This document shows, piece after piece, positions 32,020 to 60,934 of a stretch of DNA of 61,688 nucleotides. The first letter of the stretch is position 1, and the number at the start of each line of letters is the position of its first letter. The position numbers and the translations under genes were made by a program. The notes under the pieces were generated by a model. That model was not told the origin of the DNA and searched no databases. It saw only the letters and a program-made list of their open reading frames with translations. This DNA comes from a virus (Duplodnaviria; Caudoviricetes): positions 1 through 61,688 of the IMG/VR virus record IMGVR_UViG_3300034104_001758; one strand, given 5' to 3'.

Positions 32020-34040
32020 AATCCGTATTTGTATTTCCACCACTTCGTAAACATCAAGCGGGTCAACATGACCAAGAAACTCACGGCTCTTGGGCAACTG
32101 GGAATTTTACTTCAGCAGGTAAAGATGGTTCTTATGATGTTTATGACCACCCAAGTGGCTCAAAGATTTATTTTCAAACTAATCCAGCCATCTTAGATAC
32201 AACTACAGAAGACATAAGAATTAGGCGCGAAGAAGCAATTGGTTATGTTGATGATTTGCTTACTAAATACCCCTTGTCTGACGTAACATTTGTATTTGGT
32301 AATGGAGTTGATGAAAAATACCGCGCAAGTGGAGTGACGCTACCCTACTTTGGAGAACAAGGAAAAGAATCTTGGGGCTTTCCTCTAGATTCAGAAAAAC
32401 CAAACTCTCCAGAAATTATTGACAGTTGGATTAGCACTAACGTACCTAACATTTCGCGTGAAAAAATTAAAGGTGCTTTAGTTGTTTTTCAACCTGAAAT
32501 GTTTGGTAGGAAAAAAACAGGAACACCAAAAACTTTTGGAGAAGTTGCTGAAGAACATTTTATGGCTTTTTCAAATTCTGATTCTCATGTTGGCTGGAAT
32601 GAAAATGGTCTTAAAACAATTATTACCCACGAGTATGGTCATCTTTTAGACCAAAGAACTTATGAAAAATCAGTTAGCGATTTTGGTTCTTTTTCACTTG
32701 AATCCACATCTGATTATGGGCGTAAAAACAGTCGAGAATTATTTGCTGAAACTTTTACCGCTTGGGAATTAGAACGAGATAATCCCAAGTATCAAGCAGG
32801 GTTTGAGATTTTTAATTTTGATAATTTAAGTTCTCTAGTTAAATCTATTTCAGGTTTTCATATTCAAGAATCTTTAGACCCTAATTTTTCTTATGTTTTG
32901 ATTGAATTTGGTGGGATGCAAAAGCACCAAGCAGGAAACCATGACCAAGAGTCACATGGAAGTTGGGCTGTTGGTAGCGATGGCATGGATACTGACTACC
33001 GAATGTCTCACCGTCCACCTGACCCAGAGGACGGCGCTCCAGCGCATGACCTAACTGGTGGCGGTGCTATTTACCCAGAAAATGTTTACGACAAAGATGG
33101 CGCACGCATTTACGCTGGCGGAGAGCCTGAAATGGCTAGACGAGTTCATTCGATTATTACTTCAATGCGCGGAAACCCAAATGCCAAGGTGCAGATTTAT
33201 CGAGCAGTTCCCAAGGGCACAAGACAAGTTAACGTGGGTGACTGGGTAACTATTGACCGCGAGTACGCTGAAGTGCACGGTCAAAGCAACTTAAACAATG
33301 ACTATGACATTCTCAGCAACACAGTTAACGCTGACGAAATCTACACTGACGGTAATTCTTTGTATGAGTGGTCTTACCACCCACGAGTTCAAAAACATCA
33401 AGCGGGTCAACACGACCAGACCACACACGGGTCATGGGCAACTGCTAACGGATACAAACTTGCATCAAAAGATGACCTTCCGTCTCTAGATTCAGCAAAT
33501 TACGATTCAACGGTGCGAAACGCCAGAGATAATTACGTTGGTTTTGGCTACACATGGATGAACGCCTACCTTCGTGATGGATACATTGAAGACACAGTAA
33601 AAATAATTATGAGCGATGAGATTTCAAAAGATGAAGCAATCGGTCAAATAGAGTCTTTAAAAAGCGCCTTGTACGAAACACAAACAACACAAGATTTAAC
33701 CGTAACTAGATGGACACGAACTGGCGAAAGCATTATTGGAGAAAAATTTTCCGAAACGTCAGATTTTGAAAGCCTTATTGGAAAGACTTATCACGCTAAG
33801 GGCTTTACATCTACTTCCGCTAAACCCCATGAGAGCGTAAACGATTCTTACAAGGCACAATCAAAGGTTTTAGCAAACATTCATATGCCAGCAGGTACTT
33901 ATGGCGCTACCGTTGGCAATGACCGAGAAAGCGAATTTATTCTTGCCCCAGATACTTTTTTTGTAGTTATGGGAGTAAACGATATAGGCGAAGGTAGAAT
34001 TTCATTAGACCTTTTAGTGACGGGACAGGGCAATGGATAG
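32016..34040 (+). CDS. three-tag polyprotein: zincin, ART-like domain, VIP2-type ADP-ribosyltransferase
   Basis: HEYGH..SDYG..N..E.FAE; YRAV..GDWVT..EW; MNAYLR..VTR..FTSTS..ESEFIL. Confidence 0.75.
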   Translation: MKSVFVFPPLRKHQAGQHDQETHGSWATGNFTSAGKDGSYDVYDHPSGSKIYFQTNPAILDTTTEDIRIRREEAIGYVDDLLTKYPLSDVTFVFGNGVDEKYRASGVTLPYFGEQGKESWGFPLDSEKPNSPEIIDSWISTNVPNISREKIKGALVVFQPEMFGRKKTGTPKTFGEVAEEHFMAFSNSDSHVGWNENGLKTIITHEYGHLLDQRTYEKSVSDFGSFSLESTSDYGRKNSRELFAETFTAWELERDNPKYQAGFEIFNFDNLSSLVKSISGFHIQESLDPNFSYVLIEFGGMQKHQAGNHDQESHGSWAVGSDGMDTDYRMSHRPPDPEDGAPAHDLTGGGAIYPENVYDKDGARIYAGGEPEMARRVHSIITSMRGNPNAKVQIYRAVPKGTRQVNVGDWVTIDREYAEVHGQSNLNNDYDILSNTVNADEIYTDGNSLYEWSYHPRVQKHQAGQHDQTTHGSWATANGYKLASKDDLPSLDSANYDSTVRNARDNYVGFGYTWMNAYLRDGYIEDTVKIIMSDEISKDEAIGQIESLKSALYETQTTQDLTVTRWTRTGESIIGEKFSETSDFESLIGKTYHAKGFTSTSAKPHESVNDSYKAQSKVLANIHMPAGTYGATVGNDRESEFILAPDTFFVVMGVNDIGEGRISLDLLVTGQGNG

Positions 34041-34917
34041 ATTTACCGATTCATTTCTGTCTGAAGTAAGTCCAGACAAGGCTTTACAACATCGCATACG
34101 CGCCGAAGTAATTCTTGGTCGCTCGCTTTTGACAAAGCACCTAGCGGGTCAACACGACCAACGCACTCACGGAAGTTGGGCTGGCGGTGGTGCTGGAGTT
34201 GACATTACCGCTGACGTGGACAAACTTTTTTACAATCCAGACGGAAGCGTAAATAAAGAAACTCAAGATGTTATTAATCAAATGACCGAAAAAGAATTAG
34301 CAAACGGTCATCGCTATGGCGATAATGCTTTAAAAATTATTGCTGAACGTCAAGGATTTACAGGAAAACCTAAAACAGTTTCTACGGTTGCAGAACTAAA
34401 AAAATTGCAAGAAACAGAAGGCGGAATGATTGTTTATAGAGGTATTTCAGAGTGGAAAAGACTGGAAGTAATACCAGAACCTTATACACCGACAGTTATT
34501 ACTTACACGGCAGAACAGGCTGTAGAGCAATTCAAAAGAGGTGAATACTACGCTGGTTTTGGAGCGTTTGGAACTGGCACTTATACAACAGTAAAAGGAG
34601 ACGAAGCGTCTGCTTACGCTAATGACAAAGACGAAGATAATGACACTTATGGCAACGGAAAAGTTATGGCTATTCACATTCCAAAAAATGCCAAAATTCC
34701 AACACAAGAACAAGTAACTAGAGCCATGAAAATGGTTAATTATGATGATGGACCTAATGTAACAACCTACAAACAAAATGTTGCTCGTATTTTAGCGGCG
34801 CAGGGTTTTCAAGTTTACAATGCTGGTTTGTTACAGGACGACAAGAAAGATTATTTTGTTGTTTTAGACAGGTCTATGCTTACGGTTGCAGACCAAGATT
34901 GGATGATTGGATTATGA
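34033..34917 (+). CDS. tag plus ART-like domain
   Basis: VYRG...G.GAFG.G.YT......A..YA. Confidence 0.55.
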   Translation: MDRFTDSFLSEVSPDKALQHRIRAEVILGRSLLTKHLAGQHDQRTHGSWAGGGAGVDITADVDKLFYNPDGSVNKETQDVINQMTEKELANGHRYGDNALKIIAERQGFTGKPKTVSTVAELKKLQETEGGMIVYRGISEWKRLEVIPEPYTPTVITYTAEQAVEQFKRGEYYAGFGAFGTGTYTTVKGDEASAYANDKDEDNDTYGNGKVMAIHIPKNAKIPTQEQVTRAMKMVNYDDGPNVTTYKQNVARILAAQGFQVYNAGLLQDDKKDYFVVLDRSMLTVADQDWMIGL

Positions 34918-35705
34918 TGACTCCAACCGAATCACGCCGTTACGGTCTTATGGTCAGAGACTTTACTCCCGATGAAGCCAAGGCTTACAACGACCACCTT
35001 CTTGCAGGTAAAAGGGCAGAAGACTTTTTTGCCAAGATGGAAAAGCACCTTGCTGGTCAACACGACCAGAGTTCGCACGGGTCATGGGCTATTGATACTT
35101 TTGATGATTTAGGTGTTTGGGTTAAAAAATCAGAAGAACAATACGGAATAAATAGAAGAACAATTCAAGCAGAAATTGAGTTGCAACAAGTTGCCCAAGG
35201 ATTTAATTCAAGTTCTAATCCTGAGTATGCAAGTTCTGTTTCTATCTATCAAGAAAAATACGGAACTGTAATTAATGAAGCGCTAAGAGACCCATTAATT
35301 TCTACGCAGGGAGTTGAAAAACAAATTGCAGACTTAGACAAAGTATTAGATAGCGCCCCACCTTTAAAAGAACAAATTCTTGCGTATCGAGGAATAAATG
35401 GTGAAGGTCTTGAGTTTTTTGAAAACCTAAAAGTTGGCGATGTATTTCAAGATAAAGGATATGTGTCTACAACTTTAAACCCTAAAACTGCTGGGACTTT
35501 TGCTAATTCTGATTTATCTTCTTATGCTCAAGGAATGGTATTGCAATTCCATTTACCTAAAGGAACCAAAGGATTGTTTCCTACTCCGTTTTTAGGAATA
35601 GGGACGCTTTCATTCTCGGAATTAGAATTTTTATTACCGAGAGACACCAAATTTAAGGTAACGCAAATTCGCGGTAAAGTCATGGACTTGGAGATAACCC
35701 AATGA
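34914..35705 (+). CDS. tag plus VIP2-type (R-S-E) ADP-ribosyltransferase
   Basis: INEALR, AYRG, DKGYVSTT, ELEFLLPRDTKFKV. Confidence 0.8.
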   Translation: MMTPTESRRYGLMVRDFTPDEAKAYNDHLLAGKRAEDFFAKMEKHLAGQHDQSSHGSWAIDTFDDLGVWVKKSEEQYGINRRTIQAEIELQQVAQGFNSSSNPEYASSVSIYQEKYGTVINEALRDPLISTQGVEKQIADLDKVLDSAPPLKEQILAYRGINGEGLEFFENLKVGDVFQDKGYVSTTLNPKTAGTFANSDLSSYAQGMVLQFHLPKGTKGLFPTPFLGIGTLSFSELEFLLPRDTKFKVTQIRGKVMDLEITQ

Positions 35706-37228
35706 CCCCTGAAGTTCAAAAATTTGGCTATGACTCTGCTCAGGGTCTAAGTCTTGTTTTAGAAAAACCAAAATCTGTTTATGTAGTTCCGCCACTAGCC
35801 AAGGCTGTTGACGATGACTACAACCCTCTTGCCAAATACACAAAAACTGCTCACGTTGCTTTAGGTCGCTCACTTGGAATCAAGGCTGGTGAGTTCATAA
35901 CCGAAAAACATCAGGCTGGTAAGCACGACCAAGAAACTCACGGCAATTGGGCTGGTGACAGATTCAGTCCAGATTCAGTTAAGTCTGCCCGTGATGGAGC
36001 AAAAGAGTACGCCTTTAAGTTTGGAATTAAGCAAGATGACAGCATTGAGTATGACGAAGTGGTTGCAAACCGCGCTCGTGCATCCAAGATTGCTGACGCT
36101 TATGACGACCTACCGAAGTACGACAAAGACGCTGTAGATGAGTACGAAGCCCTAGCCACCGAAGTCGAACAACAGTATGACTACATGACCAAAACCCTTG
36201 GCATCAAGGTTGAGTTCATTTCGGAAGACCCATACAAGACATCTAAAGAAATGTTTGCTGAAGTTTCTACTGGCAAACTACGGGTTCTTAAAACGGAATC
36301 TACTGGAGCACACCCATTATTTAGCAACCAGCAAAACGATAAGTTCCGTGCAGTTCACGATTACTTTGGTCACGCGGCTACTGGTCGAGGGTTTGGGCAA
36401 GACGGCGAAGAAGCGGCGTGGGTTCATCACTCACAAATGTTCGGCAAAAAGGCTCGTGGCGCTCTAACTACTGAAACCCGTGGGCAGAATTCTTGGTACA
36501 ACACCCGCAAGAATGGTTTTGCTGACCAAAAGGTTGCGTTACTTCCTGAGCAGTATTGGGAAGTTCCAGCGGTGTTTGCAAAGCATCAAGCAGGTCAACA
36601 TGACCAATCTACGCACGGCAGTTGGGCTACTGGAATTGCTGAAAAGATTTCTTTGAAAACTGCTAGTCTTAAAGACCAAGGTATAACGCAAGAGTTCATA
36701 AAAGACCCAAAAAGAAAAGCAGAATTATTTGTAAATTTGGAAAATGTCGCTCTTTCTGCAATTGAATCAGATAAAAAATTAAACCCTGAATCAGATTTAG
36801 ATTTAAGTGAAATTTTGTATACTCAAGAATTTTTAATGACTTCTAGAGCAATGGATTGGGAGAATGATAATCCAAAACTTGCTTTTAAATCTGTTTTATT
36901 AACCAATAAAGGAAATGTTGCTGGAGCGATGGCTGTATCACTTGAAAGCAATTCTAACGGTGAACCCATTGTTGAAATTCATTACTTAGGTACAACTGGA
37001 ATAGTAGACGGTGCTGGAAGTATGCTTTATGGGCAAGCAATTAATTATGCCTACAAAAATAAAATGGGCTTGCAGTTGTATCCATTAGACAAAGCAGTTC
37101 CTTTTTGGATAAGCATGGGTTTTGAGCGTGACACTTCTGATTCTAATTATTTGCAAATACCCGCCAATAAAATTGAATTACTATGGAAAGAATTAACAAT
37201 AGTAGAAAGTGCGATGCCTAATGTCTAA
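35702..37228 (+). CDS. two-tag polyprotein: HDxxGH/TETRGQ domain plus GNAT-like acetyltransferase
   Basis: FRAVHDYFGH..GEEAAW..TETRGQNSW; IHYLG....GAGSML.......AVPFW..MGF. Confidence 0.65.
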   Translation: MTPEVQKFGYDSAQGLSLVLEKPKSVYVVPPLAKAVDDDYNPLAKYTKTAHVALGRSLGIKAGEFITEKHQAGKHDQETHGNWAGDRFSPDSVKSARDGAKEYAFKFGIKQDDSIEYDEVVANRARASKIADAYDDLPKYDKDAVDEYEALATEVEQQYDYMTKTLGIKVEFISEDPYKTSKEMFAEVSTGKLRVLKTESTGAHPLFSNQQNDKFRAVHDYFGHAATGRGFGQDGEEAAWVHHSQMFGKKARGALTTETRGQNSWYNTRKNGFADQKVALLPEQYWEVPAVFAKHQAGQHDQSTHGSWATGIAEKISLKTASLKDQGITQEFIKDPKRKAELFVNLENVALSAIESDKKLNPESDLDLSEILYTQEFLMTSRAMDWENDNPKLAFKSVLLTNKGNVAGAMAVSLESNSNGEPIVEIHYLGTTGIVDGAGSMLYGQAINYAYKNKMGLQLYPLDKAVPFWISMGFERDTSDSNYLQIPANKIELLWKELTIVESAMPNV

Positions 37229-38288
37229 AGGAATAGCAAGTTTTACTGACGAACCGTTTTTGCTTAACATGATTAACAAAAAGCAGTTGGCTAAACACTA
37301 CGCAGGACAGCACGACCAGTCCACGCACGGCAGTTGGGCGCACGGTATGGGTGGCGATACCTTTTCAGACGACCCTAGGTACCAAGAAGCATTAAAAGAA
37401 TATGGAAAGTTAAGCGAAAACGATAAAGTTTTGTCTACTTCAAATGATGTTTTTTGGGACAGTCCTATAGGAAAACTTATTATTGAATACGCAGATAAAA
37501 AGTTTCCAAATAATAAAACAATTAGCAGTGCAAAAAATAATGACAAACCAGTAAAGAAAAATTTAGAAATAAGAGAAGGTTTAAAAACTCGTTTTATAGA
37601 TGAAGGTCTTGCACAACAAGATTATGAGGAATCAGGAATCTATAAAATGTATTTTGAAACTATTTATCCTGACATCATAAATGTTGTTACAAGCGGAAAA
37701 CTTGCAATTGCTATGGACGTAGGCTCTTTTCGAAATATGATAGAAAGTGGAAAAAGCGAATTTAAAAATCAATTTCAGACTAAATCCTCTAATGGTCTTC
37801 TTGACCCATCCATGAGAAAAAAGGGAGAATTGGCTAATCAGTACATCCCCGTAGAAGTAAAACCAAGTGACAGACCTATTTATGGGTATGTATCTCCAGA
37901 TGACTCCTTAGATAACGTAACTTCTCTTGGAACATTCCAATACGGAGAAGTAAAATTTGTATTAAAAGATTCCGTAAGAGATAGAGCAACTATGACTATT
38001 GGTGATTCTCTTGGTACTAGGGCTTTTCCTATGAAAATAAATAAAACTCCAAGTGTAAAAGATGTAATGAACGCGACAGCCAGAATGATAAGACAAGCCT
38101 ACGGCAGGGGCAACAGAGATTGGAACGGGCAAGATAGTTTTGCTGAAACAGAATACTTTGAAGCACAAATTTTTGGTGGCGTTTCTGCAAAAGACATTGA
38201 AATGATTTATGTCCCAAATAACTGGGATTTACCTTCTAATTTTGCTTCTGTTTTTCCCAATATTGAAGTTGTCAGATACGATTCATAG
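37221..38288 (+). CDS. tag plus DUF3626-like (possible ART-fold) domain
   Basis: KNQFQT, RPIYG, YG.V.F.LK..VR.R.T.T.GDS, YFEAQIFGGV...DIE. Confidence 0.65.
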   Translation: MSKGIASFTDEPFLLNMINKKQLAKHYAGQHDQSTHGSWAHGMGGDTFSDDPRYQEALKEYGKLSENDKVLSTSNDVFWDSPIGKLIIEYADKKFPNNKTISSAKNNDKPVKKNLEIREGLKTRFIDEGLAQQDYEESGIYKMYFETIYPDIINVVTSGKLAIAMDVGSFRNMIESGKSEFKNQFQTKSSNGLLDPSMRKKGELANQYIPVEVKPSDRPIYGYVSPDDSLDNVTSLGTFQYGEVKFVLKDSVRDRATMTIGDSLGTRAFPMKINKTPSVKDVMNATARMIRQAYGRGNRDWNGQDSFAETEYFEAQIFGGVSAKDIEMIYVPNNWDLPSNFASVFPNIEVVRYDS

Positions 38289-38302
38289 TAGAAGGGAATA
38301 AA

Positions 38303-38479
38303 ATGATAAAAGGACAAGTAATCGCAGTAAGGGCTGACGGCGCTCAGTTCGTTTTTGATTCTATTGATGAACAGGAAACTATTTCAGGTTTTTTGATTTT
38401 AAAAAACGGCGCCCAAACTGAAATCGGTCTTATGGATATGTTTACCAAGGTCGGAGACTGGGAGCGAGTTGACCAGTAG
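38303..38479 (+). CDS. small protein (58 aa), candidate immunity protein
   Basis: Hand-translated MIKGQVIAVRADGAQFVF...KVGDWERVDQ; GAAGGGA RBS. Confidence 0.65.
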   Translation: MIKGQVIAVRADGAQFVFDSIDEQETISGFLILKNGAQTEIGLMDMFTKVGDWERVDQ

Positions 38480-38509
38480 TTAGCAATCCTCATGGGGTAA
38501 TCTATCCTC

Positions 38510-40048
38510 ATGTCACGCGCTAACCGTATTGCTCGCCTTGTCGCCATCCAGCAGGGCACTGAGTTCATTTTGCTCAAGCACCAACAAGGTAAGCACGACC
38601 AAGCCACGCACGGTTCATGGGACACAGACCGAAGCAACAACAAATCTGATTTTAAATACCCAGTTCAAGACGCAATTGATAAAGTTATTAAAGGCGAAGT
38701 TGGCAAAGTAGTTCCTGCCGATGCTGAGTTTTTGCTAGACAAAATGGCTGACCGCGAAGACAACCCAGACTTAACCAATCTTGAAATTGTTGGTACCCAG
38801 TTATTTACTCGCGACAATCTTGGAATTATGCGCGACCAGATGCCACAAGTTCCTAGCGGAGCCAAGGATGAGTTCCTTGATGAAATGACTAAGCGCGGTA
38901 TTGGGGTTAAGAGAGAAGATGTATCTCCTCAAAAACTGCACCCGATTCAGGCTGAAATTTCCGCTTCCAAAACTGGAAAGATTCTTCGTGACCTAAATCA
39001 GAACGGTCACAAAAAAGGTGATGGCGCCAGAATTGTTGTTTCTTCAGATAACTATGTAATTGACGGACACCACCGCTGGGCGGCTTCTGCCTTTATGTCT
39101 TTAAACGATGGCGATGAAAAGATTCCTGTATTGCGCGTTGACATGACACACATGGAATTAATTGATGTTGTTCGGGCTTGGAATAAAGCGATGGACATTA
39201 AACCAATTGGCATGGGGGAAAGCAACACCTTTAAGAAGGCTTGGGTTGAGTTCGAATTAGCGGTTATCAAGGGAATCCTTACAACCGAAATGCAAAAGCA
39301 CCTAACAGGACAACATGACCAAGAAACCCATGGCAGTTGGGCACAGGGACGTGAATACGTTGCTGGTCAATGGGAACCAGTTGAAACCGATAAATTAGTT
39401 CAGCAAGATGTTGATTGGTATAAATCAGAAAACCCCAACGCAACGCCTAGTCAAATCTCAGCACTTAAATCAAGAAGTAAAAAGTATTACAAAGATAGAA
39501 CAGTTGTGAGCAATGGAAGCACTGTAGTAACTTTTGAAAACAGAATTGACAAAAATAAAACTGGTGTTGATGAAAATGACAGAAAAACAATTCTTGAACA
39601 CATTGATTACTTACAAGAAAATTATCCTTTAGAAAACATTTCTGTTATAGCGGATAGCCAAGGCGGAAGTTCGGTTTGCTCAATGACTGAAAATGGAAAC
39701 GCTATTCGAATATCTCAAGTATGGGCACAAAAATCTAAAAAATTTGCGTACATGGGTTCTAAAGACAAACTCTATCCCCTTGATGAAGGAGAATTTGGTT
39801 TAGAATTTACTTTGTCACATGAATGGGGACACGCCTTCAATAATCCCTACAAACAGTTAAGTCAAAAATACGGAAAATTTATTGAAAAACACAAAAATTT
39901 ACTAGACACAGTTAGCACTTACGGTAGAAAATCTGAAGGAGAAGGTTTTGCCGAAACTTTTGCTCAAAATTCTTTAGAAAATAAATATGGTATTGAAAAA
40001 ATGGAAATAACTAAATTATTTGAAGTGGAGGTACTTGGAAATGTCTGA
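38510..40048 (+). CDS. two-tag polyprotein: ParB/Srx-like domain plus zincin
   Basis: R.QMPQ..L.P.Q.EI..YVIDGHHRWAA; HEWGH..STYG....E.FAE. Confidence 0.7.
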   Translation: MSRANRIARLVAIQQGTEFILLKHQQGKHDQATHGSWDTDRSNNKSDFKYPVQDAIDKVIKGEVGKVVPADAEFLLDKMADREDNPDLTNLEIVGTQLFTRDNLGIMRDQMPQVPSGAKDEFLDEMTKRGIGVKREDVSPQKLHPIQAEISASKTGKILRDLNQNGHKKGDGARIVVSSDNYVIDGHHRWAASAFMSLNDGDEKIPVLRVDMTHMELIDVVRAWNKAMDIKPIGMGESNTFKKAWVEFELAVIKGILTTEMQKHLTGQHDQETHGSWAQGREYVAGQWEPVETDKLVQQDVDWYKSENPNATPSQISALKSRSKKYYKDRTVVSNGSTVVTFENRIDKNKTGVDENDRKTILEHIDYLQENYPLENISVIADSQGGSSVCSMTENGNAIRISQVWAQKSKKFAYMGSKDKLYPLDEGEFGLEFTLSHEWGHAFNNPYKQLSQKYGKFIEKHKNLLDTVSTYGRKSEGEGFAETFAQNSLENKYGIEKMEITKLFEVEVLGNV

Positions 40049-41507
40049 AATAATTGATTTAGAAAATTTATCAGATGACGAATTGTACTTTTTTGCTACA
40101 AATAAAGTTAAAAAAGTAATGCCTTTATTTATTTCTAGTTTGACTTCTGTTCAAAAGCACTTAACGGGTCAGCATGACCAGTCCAGCCACGGCGCTTGGT
40201 CTACAAAATTAAACCCAGATGTGGCTTCTGACATTGTTAGATTTACTCAGGAATGGGGCGGATTATCAATCAACATGGTTGATGGTTCGATGCCTATATC
40301 TGGTTACATGGTGGCAAAACCGCCAGAATTCGGCAGAATTGTGGACGAAGTTGACTTTGTTAACCCAGTTAAGGGTCCAAAAATCCTTTCTGATTACATG
40401 AAAACCCATAAAAATGACCTAGGTAATGGAAGAAACTATCTTGGCACATGGCTAAATGATAGTAAGGTGTATCTTGATGTTTCTGAAAACATTCAGGAAT
40501 TGTTTGAAGCAATAAGAAGAGGTCGGGAACGTAACCAGAAAGCAATCTGGGACGTTGCTAACCTAAGTGAAATAGACACAGGAGGGACTGGTCTTGTCAA
40601 AGAAAGAAATCAAGATGGTGGAGTTGAAGAACATCTCGGAGATGACAGACGCGGAGATAGACGAGTACGCACTGAAAATCTGGGGAAGTCTTCAGGAGAA
40701 GAAAGATTAACAGTATTTGTTAAACCTCCAGTTGTAAAACATTTGGCTGGTCAACATGACCAGAGTTCCCATGGCAGTTGGGCTGGAACAACAAGCCTTG
40801 GTGCTGGTTCTGGTTTAAGCGCTCAAGAAATAAGAAACTTAAAAATAGGTGCAGGAACACAAGAAACTCAACAACAAGAAGTTTACAAAGCCGAAAATCT
40901 TGCAAGAGAAGAAATTTCACCAATTGATAGAAATTTAGAAGAACCAAGTTTTTCTTTTCCCAGTCCGTTTCGTTCTCAACCATTTGTTTACACCAGTGCT
41001 GAAGAAAAAGCATTTAAAAAGGCTTGGAAAAAATGGGAAACAGAAAGAAAAAAGTATATTGAATCTGAGTTGGGAAACAAACATTTAGATGGGACTATTG
41101 GTGGAGTAAGAAATTATGTAAACGAAGTTATTGATTCTGATTGGTTTAGAGAAGAATACGGCGTACCAAGCACATTCAGCATAGATAATGGTAAAAAGTT
41201 TGCAGAACACCAACCAGAAATAAAAACTCTTACATCTAAAACATACGGTGGATTGTATAGATTTAGAGATTATTACATACACGGGAAAAGAAGTTCAATA
41301 GAAATTAGAAATGATACTCTTAAATATGAACCCACCATTCTTCACGAAATTGCTCATTATGCTACTGCTATTAGCGCAACTAATAAGCACTCAGGTCATG
41401 GTAAAGAATTTGCTTTTAATAATCTAAAAATTGCAAAACAATTTATGCCAAAATACGCTATTGCTCTTGAGAGATACTATAAAGAAATGGGAATTTCATA
41501 TGAATGA
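40041..41507 (+). CDS. two-tag polyprotein: unknown domain plus SprT-like zincin
   Basis: GY.V...GTW.....YLDVS....A...G....Q.AIWD; ILHEIAH....HSGHGKEF. Confidence 0.65.
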   Translation: MSEIIDLENLSDDELYFFATNKVKKVMPLFISSLTSVQKHLTGQHDQSSHGAWSTKLNPDVASDIVRFTQEWGGLSINMVDGSMPISGYMVAKPPEFGRIVDEVDFVNPVKGPKILSDYMKTHKNDLGNGRNYLGTWLNDSKVYLDVSENIQELFEAIRRGRERNQKAIWDVANLSEIDTGGTGLVKERNQDGGVEEHLGDDRRGDRRVRTENLGKSSGEERLTVFVKPPVVKHLAGQHDQSSHGSWAGTTSLGAGSGLSAQEIRNLKIGAGTQETQQQEVYKAENLAREEISPIDRNLEEPSFSFPSPFRSQPFVYTSAEEKAFKKAWKKWETERKKYIESELGNKHLDGTIGGVRNYVNEVIDSDWFREEYGVPSTFSIDNGKKFAEHQPEIKTLTSKTYGGLYRFRDYYIHGKRSSIEIRNDTLKYEPTILHEIAHYATAISATNKHSGHGKEFAFNNLKIAKQFMPKYAIALERYYKEMGISYE

Positions 41508-41625
41508 CAAAGAACCAGAAGACTTTTATTTTGAAATAACTGAACCATTACCGCCAGATTATGTTCCGTTTCCAGAACTTGCTGGGCGTTTAATCGAGAA
41601 ACACGAACAAGAAACAGGGTCATAG
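41500..41625 (+). CDS. small acidic protein ending in a decayed tag
   Basis: MNDKEPEDFYFE...LIEKHEQETGS-stop. Confidence 0.55.
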   Translation: MNDKEPEDFYFEITEPLPPDYVPFPELAGRLIEKHEQETGS

Positions 41626-41676
41626 TACCTAGCGTGCACTAAAGTGGCATAAGGTTTGTCACCACTAGGAGTTCTC

Positions 41677-43041
41677 ATGTCTGTAGGTTTCTCGCATCTT
41701 AACGATGCTGAGTTGGAAACACTGCATAAATCACTGCACACTGATGTGGCAAACCCAGCAGTTCTTGAAGCCCATCACTCTGTAACTACCGAAATCCTTG
41801 CACGCGGTCTTGAGCACGGTCACGAAGATGACGAGTGGAATCGGGCAGTAGTTGAGTTGGAAATAGAAGACCAAATCCCAGTTTCTAAGGCTATTGCCGA
41901 AATGCCAACCGACATTGCCGAGCAGGTAATTGAATCTTTGGGCAATCCTGAGTTCGTTAAAAAGACTACATTGCTTACCGTTGATGGTTACACCTTAAAG
42001 TTTGACGCTTTTGAAAAGTCCGAAGAAGTAGAAATGCGTCTTAACGAAACCCAGAAAATGCTTTACGAAACCCTTGAAGCCGTTGTTGAGCGAGTTGGTG
42101 CTTTTGACCAAGGTGCAGGTGCTAACGGCGCTCACTACATGGAAAAAAATCCTTTTGTAAAAGAGGGAATGATTTGCGCCAACTGCGTCTTTTACGAAGG
42201 CGGTCAGGGCTGTGAGATTGTTACTGGGTTAATTGACCCAATGGCTTTATGTAAGTTCTGGATTATTCCTGAAGATTTACTTGATTCTTCAGTTAGCAAA
42301 CACCGAGCAGGACAACACGACCAAAAATCCCATGGGTCATGGGCTGGAAACAAAATACCTAATTTAGCACCAAACAAAATTGACGAAAGTAATCAGTATG
42401 GGGACGAAGCAAATTCTTTAGCAAGGGAATTGCGCGAAAGAATGATTTTAGCAGAACCACAATTAACTGCCGACATGGTTGAAATCGCAGATGCTAATTT
42501 TGGAACAATGCAAGGATTGGAAAATCGTGTAAAAAGCGAAGAATCTCTTGCCCGCAAAATTAAAAATGATTCTCTAGAATACGGTGGAGACATGAGACAG
42601 GCTACTCAAAAAGTTAGCGATGGCTTACGCTACAGCGTTACTTTTGATGAAGAAAATTACGCCGAAAGTGTTGTTTCTACTATTGCTACCTTGCAGGATA
42701 AAGGCTATCAAGTTTCTCGAACAAAAAACTTTTGGCAAAAAGGTGATGCCTACCAAGGAATTAACGCAAAAATCATTCACCCAAGCGGTTTTGAAGTAGA
42801 GTTACAATTTCATACTCCAGATTCTTGGGATGTTAAACAAAACAAAAGCGAAGAAATTTATCAAATGTATCGAGTTGAAACAGATAACAAAAAACGCTTT
42901 AAGCACTGGAAGTCAATGGCTAAAATGTTTGCTCAAGTTGCCGTTCCTATTGGAGTTGCGTCTATTGGAGACCCAGCAATTCAAGCCTTTACTGCTGGTG
43001 GAAAACAATTTATTTTTAAGGCTAGAGCGAGGAAAATGTAA
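41677..43041 (+). CDS. His-rich domain, HiPIP-like Cys domain, tag, and RelA/SpoT-fold Apk2/Tas1-like (p)ppApp synthetase
   Basis: EP.LT.DM..GLE.R.K..ESL.RKI..D.LRY..KN.W..Y.GIN..ELQFHT..S...K..Y..YR. Confidence 0.8.
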   Translation: MSVGFSHLNDAELETLHKSLHTDVANPAVLEAHHSVTTEILARGLEHGHEDDEWNRAVVELEIEDQIPVSKAIAEMPTDIAEQVIESLGNPEFVKKTTLLTVDGYTLKFDAFEKSEEVEMRLNETQKMLYETLEAVVERVGAFDQGAGANGAHYMEKNPFVKEGMICANCVFYEGGQGCEIVTGLIDPMALCKFWIIPEDLLDSSVSKHRAGQHDQKSHGSWAGNKIPNLAPNKIDESNQYGDEANSLARELRERMILAEPQLTADMVEIADANFGTMQGLENRVKSEESLARKIKNDSLEYGGDMRQATQKVSDGLRYSVTFDEENYAESVVSTIATLQDKGYQVSRTKNFWQKGDAYQGINAKIIHPSGFEVELQFHTPDSWDVKQNKSEEIYQMYRVETDNKKRFKHWKSMAKMFAQVAVPIGVASIGDPAIQAFTAGGKQFIFKARARKM

Positions 43042-43778
43042 TGCGCTATTTTTACCGTGTTGATTCTAGCGACATTGTTACCTCTGCCTATCGGTTTATG
43101 GTTGACGAAGAGTCAGAAACCATAACTGATGAAAAGTGGACACCAAATGGTTGGATTGATTCTGGAGATAAAGTAGTTGAATTTTTAATTACTGGTCTTG
43201 GCAACCTAGAAGAAGTAACCGAAGAGGACATAAAAAGGTACAGCCCTGAAATTTTAGAACTTCCAGAAGTTTCTTATGTGTCTAAATCTGCCGAAGAGCG
43301 CCGTTACACACTAGGTCCAATGTACGTTCCAGACCGAATTGACGCTCATAACGAATGGACAGATTCACTTGAGTTGCAAAAATCTGTTTGGGATTATGTC
43401 CGTAGCGGAGACCGCCGAATTCGCCTACAGCACGACAAAGAAGTTGTTGCTGGAGAATGGGTAGAAGTTATGGCGTGGCCGTATGAAGTGGCAGTTCCAA
43501 TGCAAAAAGCAGACGGAACTTCAGCACAAATTACATTCCCACAAGATACGGTTTTTCTTGGAGTTATCTGGGAGCCATGGGCTTGGGAAATGGTAAAGGC
43601 TGGCAAACTTCGTGGTTACTCAGTTGGTGGACGCGCTCAAAGACTAGAAGTTGATTTGCCAGTTAGCAAAGAAGCAATGGCAGTTGACGGTCCAACCGTA
43701 GAATCAGTTCACGAAGATACTTTAATGGCACCTAAGCGCCGAAAGAAAAAGAAAGACGAGTCGGAAAAATCCGAATAG
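43041..43778 (+). CDS. XkdF-like prohead serine protease with N-terminal immunity-like domain
   Basis: RYTLGPMYVPD..DAH, LQH, W..VK.GKLRGYSVGG from about residue 83. Confidence 0.8.
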   Translation: MRYFYRVDSSDIVTSAYRFMVDEESETITDEKWTPNGWIDSGDKVVEFLITGLGNLEEVTEEDIKRYSPEILELPEVSYVSKSAEERRYTLGPMYVPDRIDAHNEWTDSLELQKSVWDYVRSGDRRIRLQHDKEVVAGEWVEVMAWPYEVAVPMQKADGTSAQITFPQDTVFLGVIWEPWAWEMVKAGKLRGYSVGGRAQRLEVDLPVSKEAMAVDGPTVESVHEDTLMAPKRRKKKKDESEKSE

Positions 43779-43917: not shown

Positions 43918-44730
43918 GTGGCGTTTTCTCGCACTCGCAAAATGGTCAATCTCAACATTGAGGAAACCAGCGGAGTAGATTACCCAGCCCATTTACATGA
44001 TGGTTGGTTAGTTATGAAAGCGGCAAACCCTTCAGACGTGCAGACAGTTCTTGAATCATCCGTTTCCAAGGAGGACTCCATGTCGGAGAGCATTGAAAGT
44101 CGGCTAGATGAAGCGTTAGAACTTCTGACAAAGGCTGAAGAACGTATTGCTGAACTGGAAGATGGCACCGAAGAAGTTGCAGACGAAACTGAAGCCAACA
44201 AAAAGAAAAAGAAAATGGCTAAAGAAGAAGATGCAATGGATTCCTCAGAAGAGGAAGAGGACGTAATGAAGTCCATGCCAGAACCAGTACAAAAAGCATT
44301 TGAAACCTTGCGTAAGCAAGCAGAAGAAGCACAGGCAAAGGCTGATGAAGCCGAATCTGTACTTCAAACAGAGCGCGAAGCACACGCAGATGCCGAAGCG
44401 ATTGAAAAGGCTCGTGGTTGGTCACATCTATCACTAGACGCACAAGAAGTAGGCCCAGCCCTTCGCCGTCTAGCACAGATTGACGAAACACTAGCAAAGT
44501 CAGTAACAGAAGTTCTTGAGAGTGTAAACGCTCAGGCTGAGTCTGCTGACATTTTTGCCGAGATTGGTCGCACGACTGGTACTTCTGGCAACGCATTTTC
44601 CCAGTTGGAATCAATGGCTAAGTCTGCTGTTTCCGAAGGTAAAGCGTCAACTGTTGAGCAAGCACTTGCTGACCTTGCAGTTGCCGAACCATCACTGTAC
44701 TCACAGTACCTAAACGAGAAGGGTGCCTAA
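43918..44730 (+). CDS. capsid scaffolding protein
   Basis: S.VD.PA....W..MK N-terminus, acidic coiled coil, C-terminal P.LY.QY; upstream of the capsid genes. Confidence 0.75.
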   Translation: MAFSRTRKMVNLNIEETSGVDYPAHLHDGWLVMKAANPSDVQTVLESSVSKEDSMSESIESRLDEALELLTKAEERIAELEDGTEEVADETEANKKKKKMAKEEDAMDSSEEEEDVMKSMPEPVQKAFETLRKQAEEAQAKADEAESVLQTEREAHADAEAIEKARGWSHLSLDAQEVGPALRRLAQIDETLAKSVTEVLESVNAQAESADIFAEIGRTTGTSGNAFSQLESMAKSAVSEGKASTVEQALADLAVAEPSLYSQYLNEKGA

Positions 44731-44733
44731 CTC

Positions 44734-45126
44734 ATGGCATACGAATTCAGTAACTATAGCGTTAAGGCAACACTCGTTGCGGGTGCAGACCTTTCCGCAA
44801 AGCAATACAACTTCGTTAAGTTGAATTCATCTGGACAGGCAATCGCCGTAGCCGCCGCTACCGACCTTCCAATTGGAATTCTTCAGAACGCACCAACATC
44901 AGGACAAGAAGCAGAAATTCTTATCTCTGGTGGTTCTAAGTTGGTTCTTGGTGGCACCGTTGCCGCCGCCGCAATTGTTAGCCCATCGTCAACTGGCGCT
45001 GGTGTAGCAATCGTTCATGGAACTGACACAACCAAGTACGCCGTAGGTCAAGCCATCACTGGTGGGGCTTCAGGCGAAATCGTAACCGTAGTCGTGAACT
45101 GCTCATCCGCAGGTCGCGCGGCTTAA
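44734..45126 (+). CDS. capsid cement/decoration protein
   Basis: A..DL...QY.FV......GILQN.P..G..A, Gly/Ala-rich. Confidence 0.75.
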   Translation: MAYEFSNYSVKATLVAGADLSAKQYNFVKLNSSGQAIAVAAATDLPIGILQNAPTSGQEAEILISGGSKLVLGGTVAAAAIVSPSSTGAGVAIVHGTDTTKYAVGQAITGGASGEIVTVVVNCSSAGRAA

Positions 45127-45147: not shown

Positions 45148-46125
45148 ATGGCACAGCCACATTTGAATAGCGTCCACGTTGACGCAATTCTGACAAACAT
45201 CTCGGTAGCATATATGCAAAGAGCCGAAAATTACATTGCAGACAAGGTATTCCCAGTAGTACCTGTTGACAAGAAGAGCAACAAGTTCTTCAAGTACACC
45301 AAGAACGATTGGTTCCGTGACGAAGCACAGCGCCGTGCAGATGCAACTGAATCCGCTGGTTCGGGCTACAGCCTAACCACCGATTCATACAATGCTGACG
45401 TATGGGCTTTCCACAAGGATGTGGGCGACCAGACACTTGCTAACGCAGATGCTCCGTTGTCACCACTTCGCGAAGCCGCTGAGTTCGTCACCAACCGCCT
45501 ACTTCTTCGCCGTGAGATTCAGTTCGTTTCTGATTTCGTCACAACTGGCGTATGGGCAAATGACGTAACTGGTGTTGCAGGTACTCCTTCAACTGGAGAA
45601 GTTAAGCAATGGTCTGACTTTGCTAACTCTGACCCACTAGAAGACGTAGAAGCAGGTAAGGAAACCATTCTTGGAACTACAGGATACGAGCCAAACACAC
45701 TTGTTCTTGGCTATCAGGTATTCCGTAAGTTGAAGAATCACCCAGACCTAGTTGACCGCATCAAGTACACATCATCCAACGTAATCACCGAAGAAATGAT
45801 TGCTCGTATGTTTGGTGTAGACCGCGTGCTTGTCGCTAAGTCAGTAAAGGCAACAAACAAGGAAGGCGCCGCAGACGCAATGGCATTTAATGTCGGCAAG
45901 TCTGCTCTTCTTTGCCACGTTGCTCCAACTCCAGGCCTAATGACTCCATCCGCAGGTTACATCTTCTCTTGGAATGGTGTATCTGGCGGTCTTGGACAGA
46001 CCATTGGTACTTCACAGTTCCGTATGGAAACCATTAAGGCAAGTCGTGTTGAAGCCGAAGTCGCGTTTGACAACAAGGTTGTTGCCGCTGACCTAGGTTA
46101 CTTCTGGACTAGCATCGTAGCGTAA
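45148..46125 (+). CDS. major capsid protein
   Basis: HVDAILTNIS.AY......AD..FP.V.V; 325 aa; position. Confidence 0.88.
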   Translation: MAQPHLNSVHVDAILTNISVAYMQRAENYIADKVFPVVPVDKKSNKFFKYTKNDWFRDEAQRRADATESAGSGYSLTTDSYNADVWAFHKDVGDQTLANADAPLSPLREAAEFVTNRLLLRREIQFVSDFVTTGVWANDVTGVAGTPSTGEVKQWSDFANSDPLEDVEAGKETILGTTGYEPNTLVLGYQVFRKLKNHPDLVDRIKYTSSNVITEEMIARMFGVDRVLVAKSVKATNKEGAADAMAFNVGKSALLCHVAPTPGLMTPSAGYIFSWNGVSGGLGQTIGTSQFRMETIKASRVEAEVAFDNKVVAADLGYFWTSIVA

Positions 46126-52857: not shown

Positions 52858-55800
52858 GTGGCAGACGCAATCGTAACGGATGTACTAGCCCGTATTTCCG
52901 CTGACGCTTCTAACTTTGTTCGTAACATGAACCAAGCGGCTCAAACCGCAGATAATTTTGGTGGTTCGTTAAGAAACGCTGGCAATGCAATAAATGGTAC
53001 TAACCAGCAAATTCAAGGTTTGGCTGGGGGCGCCAGCCTTGCCCACAAAACAATGATGGGTCTTGGTACTGTAACCGCAATTGCTGGTGGCGCCATGATT
53101 GCTTTTGGCGTTAAATCATTTTATGCCGCGGCGCAAGTCAACGAAATGGACGTTGCAATGCGGGCAGTTGGAAATTCAACTGGTCTTGGCTATACCGCAA
53201 TGCGTCAAGCCACTATTGCAGTTCGTGACAACGGTATTGAAATGGCTTCCGCGCAACAAATGGTTTTGTTGTATGCCAAGGCTCAGTTAAATTTGGCTGA
53301 CGCATCCAAGGTTGCTCGTGTTGCTCAGGATTTAGCGGTTTTGTCTGGTGCAAACTCTACTGAAACCGCAATGCGCTTGACTTACGCAATTATGAATCAA
53401 GACACCTTGATGTTGCGTCACTTAGGTATTACCAAGACCGCATCACAAGCCTTTGAAGAATACGCTCGTGCAAACAATACAAGTGCTAAAGCCCTAACTG
53501 AGTTCGAAAAGAAACAAGCAATTACTAACATGGTTGTTGCTGAGGGCGGTAAAGTTTTTGGAGTTTACGAAGCGGCTATGAAAGAACCAGCCAAGGTTCT
53601 GCGTTCGTTCCCACGTTTGTTTAATGAAATGCAAGTTTCAGTTGGTCAAGGATTAACAAAAGCATTTGGGCCGTTAATTCTTAGCACCTATAATGCCGTT
53701 AAAGCATTTACAGCATTAGTTAATGAAGGTGGTGCGCTTACTCCAATAGTTGACGCTATTGGTAGGGCATTTGTTTATGCAACTGCCCCTATTACTGCTG
53801 TTATGGAAGCAATTGGAAAATTTCTTACCAAGATGCAAGTTTTAAGCAAGGGGGCAGAAAGAGTCAAAGAACACGTTTATGGTGTTGCTGGCTCAGCAGA
53901 AATGCTAGAAGCAAAAACTAAAGCGCTTTCAGAAACTTTTGCTAAATTCCTTCCACTTATTGCCGCAGTTGGAACTGCTTTAAGTCTTAAAGTTGGTAAA
54001 GAACTTACCGCTGGAATACCAATTTTAGGACGTTTTGTTAGCGCATTTCACCCTCTTGTAGGAGCCCTTCTTGCATTTGTATTAACGTCTCCAGCAATAC
54101 AAAATGCGTTAGGTAATTTAATTAGTGCTTTTTCCCCACTTATAGATTTATTTAAGGGTTCAGCAGATACTATTGGTGGAGCATTTACTGGAGCAATAAA
54201 CATAGTTGCTGGAGCAATAAATGTTTTGGCAAGTGGAGTTCGAACTGTTACCGAATTTATTGCCCGTAATGCCGAAACTGTAAAAATCTTAGTTGGAGTT
54301 TTACTTGGTGCTTATGCCGCTTACAGATTAATTACTGGAGCGATGGTTGTTTACAATACTATTTTGCGTATTGTGCAAACGGCTCAGTTGCAATATCACC
54401 TATTAATGATGGGTACTACTACCAGTGTAGGTAAATTAACAAAAGCAATGGGACTATTAAAAGCCGCTTTCTTAGCAAATCCAGTTGGAGCCATAATTGC
54501 TGGTATTGCTATTTTAGTTGCCGCGTTTGTATTGGCTTGGAAGCGCTCAGAAACTTTTAGAGATGTAATGACTGAAGTATTTAACACAGTTGCTAAATAT
54601 GCTGGAATTTACATTGCTTATCTTTTAAGAACACTTGCCAAAATTATTGGTGCTTTTGGAAGTTTAATGGAACAAGGAAATGTTTTTAGAAGCATTTTTG
54701 TTGGTTACATAAACACAGTTGCCAAGGCTTATGGGTGGGCAATTTCTACAATTCTTGGTGCTTTTGCAAATTTCATTGGCGGAATAAGCAGACTTCTTGA
54801 ATCTAATGAAGGTTTAAGAAAAGGATTAATTACAATTATTAATGGGTTTGCCAATGCTTATAGATTTGTATTTGGAGATATGCTTGGAGTTCTTGCCGAT
54901 TTTATTTTAAAACTTGCAGACTTCTTAGGTTCAAATGAAAGATTCCGAAAAGGTTTTGTTGTCATTTTTAATGGCGTAGCAAAAGCACTTGGTTATGTTG
55001 TTGGATTTTTATTAGATTCTTTAGCGTTTTTCCTTACTGGGCTTGCAAACGTAATTGGAAAAGTAAGTGGTTTTGGAAAGGGAATGGTTTCTCTATTTAA
55101 CGCCATAGGAACTGGTGTAACTAAAGCACTTGGAAATCTTTGGGATAAAGTAAAGGGATTCTTTAATAAACTAACAACTCCAGTTAAAGCAATACTAAAT
55201 GCTCTTGGATTTGATAAAATTGCTAAAGGAATTGAAACTGTCGCTGGCAGTTTAGGTTCTTTCACTAAGGGAGTTTTTAATTTTGCTGATAAGTCTGAAG
55301 CCGCATTAAGAAGCATGGCTAAAACTTTGGGAACTGCCGCAGACAACGCAAGAAAATTTACTGCAAAAGATTTTGGTTCAGCCATTTACGACAGTACAGT
55401 TGCCGCTTTAACCAAAACTGGAACTGCATTAAAAAAGTTTTCCGATAATGTTAAAAAGAGCAATCCGTATAAAGATGTTGGTACGGGTATGGTTTCCAGT
55501 ATAATTTCTGGATTTGCTAAGGCTGAAACAGTAATTCAGGGCTGGGCTAACAAAATAAAAACATTTAGCGAAAAAGATTTTGGTGGTGCCATTGCTGACT
55601 ATATTGTTAGAGCCGCTCAAACCGCTTCTGATTGGTTAAACAGCGCCGCAGATAAAGTCTTGGAATTTACTGGCGAAGATTTTGTTGGAAATGTAGCCGA
55701 AGCAGTTGGAAACTTTACCGATTTAATTGGTGGAATGTTTGACGACCTAACCAATGCTGGCGAAACAATTGAAACTATATTCGACAATGTTGGCGATGGT

Positions 55801-59531: not shown

Positions 59532-59566
59532 GTAAAATTATGAGATTCGCAAAAGGAGATTTGTAA

Positions 59567-60931: not shown

Positions 60932-60934
60932 GTT

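Follow-up and report, generated by a model that had tools for sequence, protein, structure and literature searches.

A predicted IapK-like inhibitor domain forms the N-terminus of the prohead protease beside an Apk-like alarmone synthetase in an uncultured tailed phage

The virus record IMGVR_UViG_3300034104_001758 (G000; Duplodnaviria, Caudoviricetes) was analyzed in its full length of 61,688 bases, which is called the window in the following. The analysis concerned two adjacent genes of its head module, i.e., c8, the last of eight consecutive cargo genes, which ends with a RelA/SpoT-type synthetase domain, and the next gene, which encodes a prohead protease with an additional domain at its N-terminus. 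According to CheckV the completeness of the record is 100%. The long open reading frames (ORFs) are all located on the + strand, and the G+C content is only about 43%. The head genes are arranged in the order portal, MuF, c1-c8, protease, scaffold-like protein, head protein and major capsid protein, which fits the position of an XkdF-type prohead protease (Table 1). The cargo genes encode two ADP-ribosyltransferase domains, ParB-like regions, DUF3626, an SprT-like zincin and, in the last position, the synthetase domain. The complete record was searched for a tyrosine integrase, a serine recombinase and HD_4 and HD domains, and none of them was found, nor were any tRNA genes. A blastn comparison of the region with cultured phages did not yield a match.

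Table 1. Positions of the features in the window and, in the last line, of Zeta-type loci in related contigs. aa, amino acids; pLDDT, predicted local distance difference test; syn, conserved synthetase motifs.
Feature	Position	Strand	Basis
Portal	29612-31021	+	PF06074
MuF-like gene, not joined to the synthetase	31030-32019	+	PF04233 with 29.3 bits, just below the cut-off of 29.6; PHROG head morphogenesis families
Eight cargo genes c1 to c8	32016-43041	+	
Linker motif, copies 1-6	32049-32093, 33393-33437, 34135-34179, 35043-35087, 35906-35950, 36581-36625	+	
Linker motif, copies 7-12	37293-37337, 38576-38620, 39296-39340, 40155-40199, 40737-40781, 42298-42342	+	
Last cargo gene c8, 461 aa: N-terminal domain, K-H-x-x-G-Q-H-D-Q linker, C-terminal synthetase toxin domain (predicted)	41656-43041	+	PHROG 2859, 7625 and 2841 on the C-terminal part
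Linker K-H-R-A-G-Q-H-D-Q-K-S-H-G-S-W, boundary between carrier and toxin domain	42298-42342	+	One of the 12 copies in c1-c8
RelA/SpoT-type small alarmone synthetase domain, Apk-like	42343-43038	+	PDB 8vx3; Apk2-bearing phages; syn motifs
XkdF-type prohead protease ORF, 245 aa, with immunity-like domain at the N-terminus	43041-43778	+	PF14550, E 5.2e-10; PHROG head maturation protease families 3017 and 33677
IapK-like N-terminal domain, residues 1-72, predicted synthetase partner	43041-43256	+	
Low-confidence linker, residues 75-86, with V-S-K (80-82)	43263-43298	+	pLDDT <50
XkdF-type (Peptidase_S78_2) protease core	43269-43649	+	Pfam, residues 77-203; invariant columns
C-terminal tail of the protease with a second V-S-K (208-210), a conserved V-H-x-D-T-[IL]-M and a Lys-rich end	43650-43775	+	pLDDT <50
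Scaffold-like gene	43918-44730	+	
Small head protein	44734-45126	+	
Major capsid protein	45148-46125	+	
Zeta-type loci	L005:8160-10513, L006:8256-10603, L007:7635-10546, L010:7719-10531, L020:2807-7395		

The eight cargo genes contain 12 copies of a motif of 15 residues, K-H-x-x-G-[QK]-H-D-Q-x-[ST]-H-G-x-W, which are located N-terminally or between domains. The copies share 80% identity on the amino acid level vs. 72% on the DNA level, and the motif thus seems to be kept as a protein sequence. In the related locus L020 a variant, H-P-G-H-P-D-Q, is found between domains. A published description of the repeated motif was not found in the literature searched; the motif possibly acts as a signal for cleavage or for targeting to the capsid. 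In c8 it follows an N-terminal part of 229 aa, for which no Pfam family was found, and the codon directly after the motif, at 42343, is the first one of the synthetase domain.

All RelA/SpoT motifs that an earlier note on this DNA had reported for the end of c8 were indeed recovered in its C-terminal part, namely R-x-K-x-x-E-S-L-x-R-K, D-x-L-R-Y, Y-x-G-I-N and E-L-Q-F-H-T. In domain numbering the motif residues are R62/K64/S68/K72, D93-R96-Y97, Y137-G139-N141 and E153-Q155-H157. These residues, which represent the four syn motifs that can be recognised and include the catalytic Asp of syn2 and Glu of syn4, were invariant in 21/21 aligned relatives. A sequence search of the PDB matched the domain to 8vx3, an extracellular alarmone synthetase, over 181 residues (E 1.3e-12), and the Pfam family RelA_SpoT was detected with 19.6 bits, which is under its cut-off of 27. 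A tblastn search of cultured phages retrieved 131 records at E <= 1e-3, all with less than 60% identity, among them 35 Streptococcus, 3 Pasteurella and 2 Mannheimia phages, with the C-terminal part of MuF-type "minor head" proteins as the matching region. The E values for Streptococcus phages with Apk2 ranged from 1e-24 to 7e-27, and a BLASTP alignment with the MuF C-terminus of Streptococcus phage IPP46 had 33% identity over 188 residues (E 4e-32).

According to the available text of PMC12226406, Apk enzymes contain GxN, RYT and YH in place of the SxH, AVR and IR of (p)ppGpp synthetases. The respective residues of the c8 domain are G-I-N in syn3, R-Y-S in syn2 and F-H in syn4, and therefore it is Apk-like. 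Apk2 enzymes form (p)ppApp exclusively from ATP and are toxic upon expression; the c8 domain is most likely an Apk-type enzyme that makes (p)ppApp from ATP. Its previous designation as an Apk2-like (p)ppApp synthetase agrees with the homology to Apk2 toxins and with the Apk-type residues, but the definition of Apk2 in the available text of PMC12226406 includes an N-terminal MuF domain on the same polypeptide. The MuF-like protein of the window is encoded separately, and because the carrier c8 is devoid of a MuF domain, its synthetase part does not strictly qualify as Apk2.

The start codon of the protease ORF shares one base with the c8 stop codon (TAATG), and an AGGA is present about 10 nt upstream. 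The protein begins with M-R-Y-F-Y-R, and A-Y-R-F, two W, E-F-L-I-T-G, L-E-E-V-T-E-E-D and V-S-K at positions 80-82 follow; the last base of the K82 codon is 43286. This part had been described as an 82-aa extension ending in VSK. The motifs are present as described, but the extension is shorter: the match to PF14550 (39.8 bits vs. a cut-off of 24) already begins at residue 77, and therefore the extension proper comprises about 72-76 residues plus a linker. K82 lies inside the protease model of Pfam and was invariant in 28/28 aligned proteases, including proteases with other N-terminal domains. D101-A-H103 and G-Y-S194-x-G-G were also invariant in 28/28 proteases, and H103 and S194 are the probable catalytic His and Ser. 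The C-terminal tail possibly serves capsid targeting.

When the N-terminal domain was folded alone (24 sequences), a pLDDT of 91.6 and a predicted template modeling score (pTM) of 0.78 were obtained, and the predicted fold runs from four beta strands over a helix and a further strand to two final helices. In a model of the full-length protease residues 1-72 had pLDDT values of 79-88, and the values of residues 75-86 were below 50. In a BLASTP search (E <= 0.001) with the first 80 residues, 100 of the 120 protease homologues listed were found to carry this part N-terminally, and the closest protease cores with incomplete coverage carried other sequences N-terminally. An exhaustive HMMER search of 1.84 billion representatives yielded 24 proteins with the domain at E <= 0.001. 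Twelve of these are free proteins of 72-85 residues, one of which (P0121) may be a truncated form, and one further match has 316 aa and consists of the domain, the linker motif and a GNAT-like domain. Foldseek searches of the PDB had no match at E <= 0.001, neither with the N-terminal domain alone nor with the whole protease model (pLDDT 63), for which the herpesvirus proteases 1vzv and 1ief were found at ranks 11 and 34 with E >0.1. In BFVD the N-terminal domain matched a 236-aa protein (E 6e-7, template modeling score 0.88) and a 92-aa protein (E 1.4e-3), which are both unnamed and uninformative on IapK. A Pfam search with the extension and five free homologues revealed nothing meaningful. 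Two other candidate relationships were rejected. When the extension and IapK were compared with PDB sequences by profile, Kelch and lectin propeller blades were matched, but only over short beta-hairpins, and this was regarded as chance similarity at the motif level. A degenerate 2H phosphoesterase remnant was dismissed because the BLAST alignment with Arthrobacter sequences over residues 13-75 was nearly devoid of identities.

To describe the genomic context, 85 loci were scored with hidden Markov models (HMMs) of the domain and the synthetase; 80 of these had been found via the protease and five via free forms of the domain. The N-terminal domain was present in 79/85 loci, and a synthetase was located just upstream on the same strand in all 76 loci that could be scored (L024, L051 and L080 start only 11-52 bases before the domain and are unscorable in this respect). 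A synthetase without the domain was not found in any of the 85 loci. The gap between synthetase and domain was less than 160 bases in 74 loci, and about 1.3 kb in L083 and L086, in which DUF3626 and a 64-aa ORF lie in between. The sequence of synthetase and domain was kept across five architectures. In 72 loci, as in the window, a c8-type carrier is encoded directly before a protease that begins with the domain. The domain is a free ORF of 78-81 aa in seven loci: it follows a MuF-synthetase in L052, L084, L085 and L087, it follows a MuF-synthetase-DUF3626 protein and the 64-aa ORF in L083 and L086, and it follows a protease with a C-terminal synthetase in L020. An XkdF-type core was not found in L083-L087, and the N-terminal part of the next large ORF is protease-like, but unrelated, as judged by eye. 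The fusion was kept in 72/80 loci ascertained via the protease, with identities down to about 60% for the core and near 30% for the domain.

In six loci, L005-L010, the protease cores are 76-96% identical to that of the window and the N-terminal domain of c8 is kept, but the synthetase and the extension are both absent. The C-terminus of c8 is a Zeta_toxin domain instead (PF06414, E 5.5e-28 in L005 and 7.5e-19 in L007, the two loci scanned), and the Zeta part of L005 matched all six loci by phmmer. The proteases of these loci start with a different domain of about 90 residues. L020 contains both pairs, because a Zeta-toxin protein (PF06414, E 3e-22) precedes a protease with the second type of extension, and the C-terminal synthetase and the free ORF come thereafter. 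Taken together, Zeta_toxin occurred with the different extension of about 90 residues in 7/7 Zeta loci, and the two may represent a second toxin-inhibitor pair in the same slot of the protease. The junction S-[YL]-V-S-K is also present in the Zeta-type loci. One protein of 98 aa, P0234, is possibly a free form of the Zeta-linked extension.

The divergence of the three parts was compared using 68 sequences in which all of them are complete. The domain had a mean pairwise identity of 0.485, compared with 0.559 in the synthetase and 0.788 in the protease core. The identities of synthetase and domain were correlated with 0.946, those of synthetase and core with 0.831 and those of domain and core with 0.832, and the partial correlation of synthetase and domain given the core was 0.825. 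In 65 pairs the cores were at least 93% identical and the synthetases less than 70%, and in the 15 of these pairs that were listed the identity of the domain was 58-65%. L015 and L048 even have identical cores, while the other two parts are 66% and 64% identical. As the divergence of the domain tracks that of the synthetase, these two seem to have a common history, in contrast to the domain and the protease core. This agrees with the hypothesis that the two are partners, but it is not a proof.

The available text of PMC12226406 describes the order iapK-aph1 after the Apk2 gene, and in three cultured phages an ORF of 69-72 residues directly follows an Apk2-type gene and is followed by an HD hydrolase. 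The position of a small partner of about 70 residues right after the toxin is also found in the 76 scorable loci; in the window it is part of a 245-aa protein. The earlier note had proposed to compare the extension with IapK by profile and by fold. The profile comparison with hhalign, for which 72 of 90 IapK relatives and 126 domain sequences were used, resulted in a probability of 86.1% (E 5e-6) over 63 columns, which is nearly the full length of both; a reversed profile reached 0.1% and the best of 30 column shuffles 2.6%. Pairwise tblastn against IapK did not yield a hit; the best E value was 0.35, with a weak match inside the domain at 43152-43241. Twelve loci in bacterial genomes were reached via the synthetase. 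In one of them, from Streptococcus suis, IapK and Aph1 are clearly present, and in three Chloroflexi bins an ORF of 68-96 residues after the synthetase was detected by the HMM of the domain (E 5.6e-6, 3.2e-6 and 5.9e-4). Four loci have a small unmatched ORF after the synthetase and four are without a convincing small ORF, the synthetases of the latter four starting with hydrophobic segments. On the basis of these profile similarities, the domain and IapK probably belong to one broad and fast-evolving IapK-like family. Synthetases of about 275-355 aa with a hydrophobic N-terminus and without an IapK-like neighbour were seen in L094, L095, L097 (Selenomonas) and L102 (Ruminobacter); these are taken to be exported enzymes like SaEAS and resemble the exported alarmone synthetases in the available text of PMC12691689.

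A prediction of the complex of synthetase and domain, also proposed in the earlier note, placed the domain over the catalytic motif residues. The interaction prediction scores from aligned errors (ipSAE) were 0.77, 0.80 and 0.81, in contrast to 0.00 for the best of three controls. The partner had a pLDDT of at least 83, and the runs shared at least 64% of the contacts. In a calibration of the tool 58/80 solved complexes and 2/110 mismatched pairs reached the mark, which is only a rough guide for predictions with own alignments. On the side of the synthetase the confidently predicted interface includes residues 92-93 (with D93, the Asp of syn2), D135-Y137 and N141 (syn3), Q155 (syn4), 165 and a helical stretch from 173 to 196, and W33, G52 and E58, which are conserved, contribute to it from the domain. 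A recall of a solved complex by the tool is unlikely because the partner has no Foldseek match in the PDB at E <= 0.001. IapK is reported to bind its cognate toxin and to occlude the active site, and IapK proteins neutralise the toxin by covering its acceptor site. The predicted geometry would be an occlusion of the same kind, and the model supports binding, but is not a proof of it.

The earlier note had proposed a putative immunity domain fused to the protease. Gene context, joint replacement, co-divergence, profile similarity to IapK and the controlled complex model all support this proposal; the observation was confirmed and its interpretation was largely supported in silico. We consider it rather likely that c8 carries an Apk-type synthetase and that the adjacent prohead protease carries a divergent IapK-like inhibitor, which silences the toxin in the producing cell. 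The synthetase domain would make (p)ppApp from ATP, and c8 would probably be carried in the phage head like other cargo of MuF regions. The IapK-like domain would bind the synthetase across the catalytic and the acceptor-nucleotide motifs and keep it inactive where the phage is built. Owing to the translational coupling of the two genes, and because every capsid requires the protein that contains the inhibitor, the toxin would never be made without its inhibitor. As part of the prohead protease the inhibitor would enter the procapsid, and the flexible linker might allow the protease or its self-digestion to remove it in the maturing capsid, so that the enzyme would be free upon injection. This last step, proteolytic release or arming by the protease, is speculation.

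Several observations weigh against this interpretation. The support for a toxin-inhibitor pair is computational throughout, and the product, toxicity, inhibition, packaging and proteolytic release are all inferred. No solved relative emerged from PDB sequence profiles of the extension or IapK. A comparison of 3 IapK with 24 domain sequences gave a weak hhalign probability of 23.5% over 21 columns, and the value of about 86% obtained with the larger sets, which was calculated without secondary structure, is suggestive, but not a proof. Linkage and co-divergence are confounded, because the segments are adjacent and one recombination tract moves both of them. Aph1 was not detected (the best tblastn E value was 0.31, and PF13328 and PF01966 are absent from the genome), and thus the canonical set of two immunity proteins is incomplete. 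V-S-K occurs five times vs. 1.7 times expected (P 0.026), which is a marginal enrichment, and the Lys at the site in the scaffold is a Glu in many relatives; V-S-K as a cleavage site of the protease was therefore left unproven. In addition, the N-terminus of XkdF-type proteases is occupied by a 2H phosphoesterase in Arthrobacter phages and by a c8N-like region in L052, and it may simply be a tolerated fusion site.

A fusion without mechanistic meaning would have arisen by loss of the stop codon of a free immunity gene, which then continued into the protease gene, and the domain would act like a free IapK and would never be processed. The occurrence of both free and fused forms, the long and flexible linker that was predicted and the fact that no conserved cleavage site could be established are in line with this explanation. 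It does not easily account for the retention of the fusion in most protease-ascertained loci in spite of the strong divergence of core and domain, and the second, unrelated extension beside the Zeta toxin indicates that this position has been used at least twice. This explanation is thus possible, but we would not expect it to be the right one. A wider proposal is that the N-terminus of the protease is a general immunity slot, to which the cognate inhibitor of the last cargo toxin, either of the Apk or of the Zeta type, is fused. The toxin would be silenced in the producing cell, escorted into the procapsid and armed by self-digestion of the protease. This proposal is tentative, and at present it must be called doubtful.

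The domain could also be chiefly a packaging adaptor, which would drag the synthetase into the procapsid via the targeting signal of the protease, with inhibition being a side effect or absent. Binding is indeed predicted, and the 2H phosphoesterase and the c8N-like region mentioned above are other probable cargo at the N-terminus of related proteases. In contrast, the domain is free and not attached to a capsid protein in seven loci, in five of which (L083-L087) an XkdF-type core was not found, the domain is predicted to contact the synthetase at its catalytic motif residues, and it resembles IapK, a known inhibitor. Furthermore, c8 has a carrier domain and a linker motif of its own, as the other seven cargo proteins do. 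An adaptor function is therefore judged to be improbable. Still another explanation is that the extension is a pro-domain or a regulator of the protease, unrelated to the synthetase, and that both occur together only by shared ancestry. It is located N-terminally of the catalytic core, like many pro-regions of proteases, and is present in the large majority of the listed homologues. The context data largely refute this explanation, because the domain is free beside synthetases in loci with unrelated proteases, it accompanies the synthetase also where this is the C-terminal part of the protease (L020) or is joined to MuF (L052), both are missing from L005-L010 in spite of a conserved core, and it diverges with the synthetase and not with the core. 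A pro-domain thus has hardly any probability left.

The predicted toxin-inhibitor pair is of the known Apk/IapK kind. It has the homology and the Apk-type residues in common with the Apk2/IapK/Aph1 sets of MuF toxins, which are described in the available texts of PMC12226406 and PMC11699363 for temperate phages of Streptococcus pneumoniae, Mannheimia haemolytica, Pasteurella multocida and Bacteroides. Further common features are the location in the head-morphogenesis region and a partner of about 70 residues directly downstream, with overlapping stop and start codons, an IapK-like profile and a predicted cover of the active site. Unlike in these sets, the carrier is not a MuF protein, MuF is encoded separately, and partner and prohead protease are parts of one ORF. 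In addition, Aph1 is lacking in the genome, no tyrosine or serine integrase was found, and the toxin gene is one of eight consecutive cargo genes. The pair of Apk1 (Tas1) and Tis1 (PDB 6OX6; available text of PMC12691689) also combines a (p)ppApp synthetase toxin with a small protein that blocks the active site, but its delivery is by a PAAR carrier of the type VI secretion system. The synthetase domain of c8 had no PDB sequence match to 6OX6 at E <= 1, and the 50 Foldseek PDB matches listed for the N-terminal domain do not include Tis1.

Polyvalent proteins and cargo of MuF regions have been described by Iyer et al. (2017, PMC5512222). In its available text ADP-ribosyltransferase, ParB-like, zincin/SprT, RelA/SpoT and 2H phosphoesterase domains are found beside portal and MuF genes and are predicted to be packaged and injected. 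In the window, unlike in polyvalent proteins, such domains are distributed over eight genes and are separated by the K-H-x-x-G-Q-H-D-Q motif. Immunity domains on a prohead protease are not described in the available text of PMC5512222. The proteases of Arthrobacter phages (Laroyevirus) have the same XkdF-type core (45-58% identity) and an extra N-terminal domain, but the domain fused there is a 2H phosphoesterase (PF13563, annotated as "RNA ligase"), and thus an enzyme and not an IapK-like binder. A synthetase like that of the window was not found in Arthrobacter Laroyevirus phages among the 131 tblastn records. A published description of an immunity domain fused to a head-maturation protease was not found in a search that did not extend to supplementary files. 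The in-frame fusion of an inhibitor and a head protease in a large uncultured clade, and the use of the same slot by a second toxin type, appear to be new, as do the carrier that is not MuF and the absence of Aph1 and of an integrase.

The available text of PMC11699363 states that the biological role of toxins of MuF regions is unknown. The results raise the question of how a tightly inhibited phage toxin turns active for delivery, for which no explanation was found in the available texts of the cited papers. The location of the predicted inhibitor on the very enzyme that is activated and destroyed in the maturing capsid, together with the layout with a second toxin, suggests a testable link between capsid maturation and the arming of a toxin. 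If the immunity slot were true, it would answer how packaged polymorphic toxins stay harmless during assembly and yet arrive active. The results also extend the predicted pair to phages that are apparently not temperate, to carriers other than MuF and to a broader IapK-like family beside synthetases in Chloroflexi bins.

Several minor observations were made in the window and its relatives. The record opens in a tail-fibre-like gene (1-1125) and closes in tail genes (52858-61687), the terminase gene (9241-10845) is distant from the portal gene (29612), and the gene layout is similar to that of the Arthrobacter Laroyevirus phages. A small acidic ORF is located between the SprT-like c7 and c8 (41431-41625, with a likely start near 41500) and is kept in L005 (7935-8129). 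An ORF of 58-64 aa follows the DUF3626 cargo domain in the window (38303-38479), in L083 (5804-5998) and also in L086, and a similar small domain is fused ahead of the IapK-like domain in P0132 (146 aa). This small ORF, for which no Pfam family was found, may be another immunity-like partner. Zincin-type motifs are present at the ends of c6 (38510-40048, H-E-W-G-H) and c7 (40020-41507, SprT-like H-E-I-A-H, PF10263, E 8.3e-7), and these domains are alternative candidates for the processing of cargo. A Dps/ferritin-like ORF or domain, which the window lacks, is located beside the protease in several relatives (L007:10533-11030, L010:10518-11015, L052:10474-11034 and L020:2807-5827). The one in L020 was matched by the Pfam family Ferritin (E 6.7e-15), and those in L007, L010 and L052 are alike as judged by eye only.

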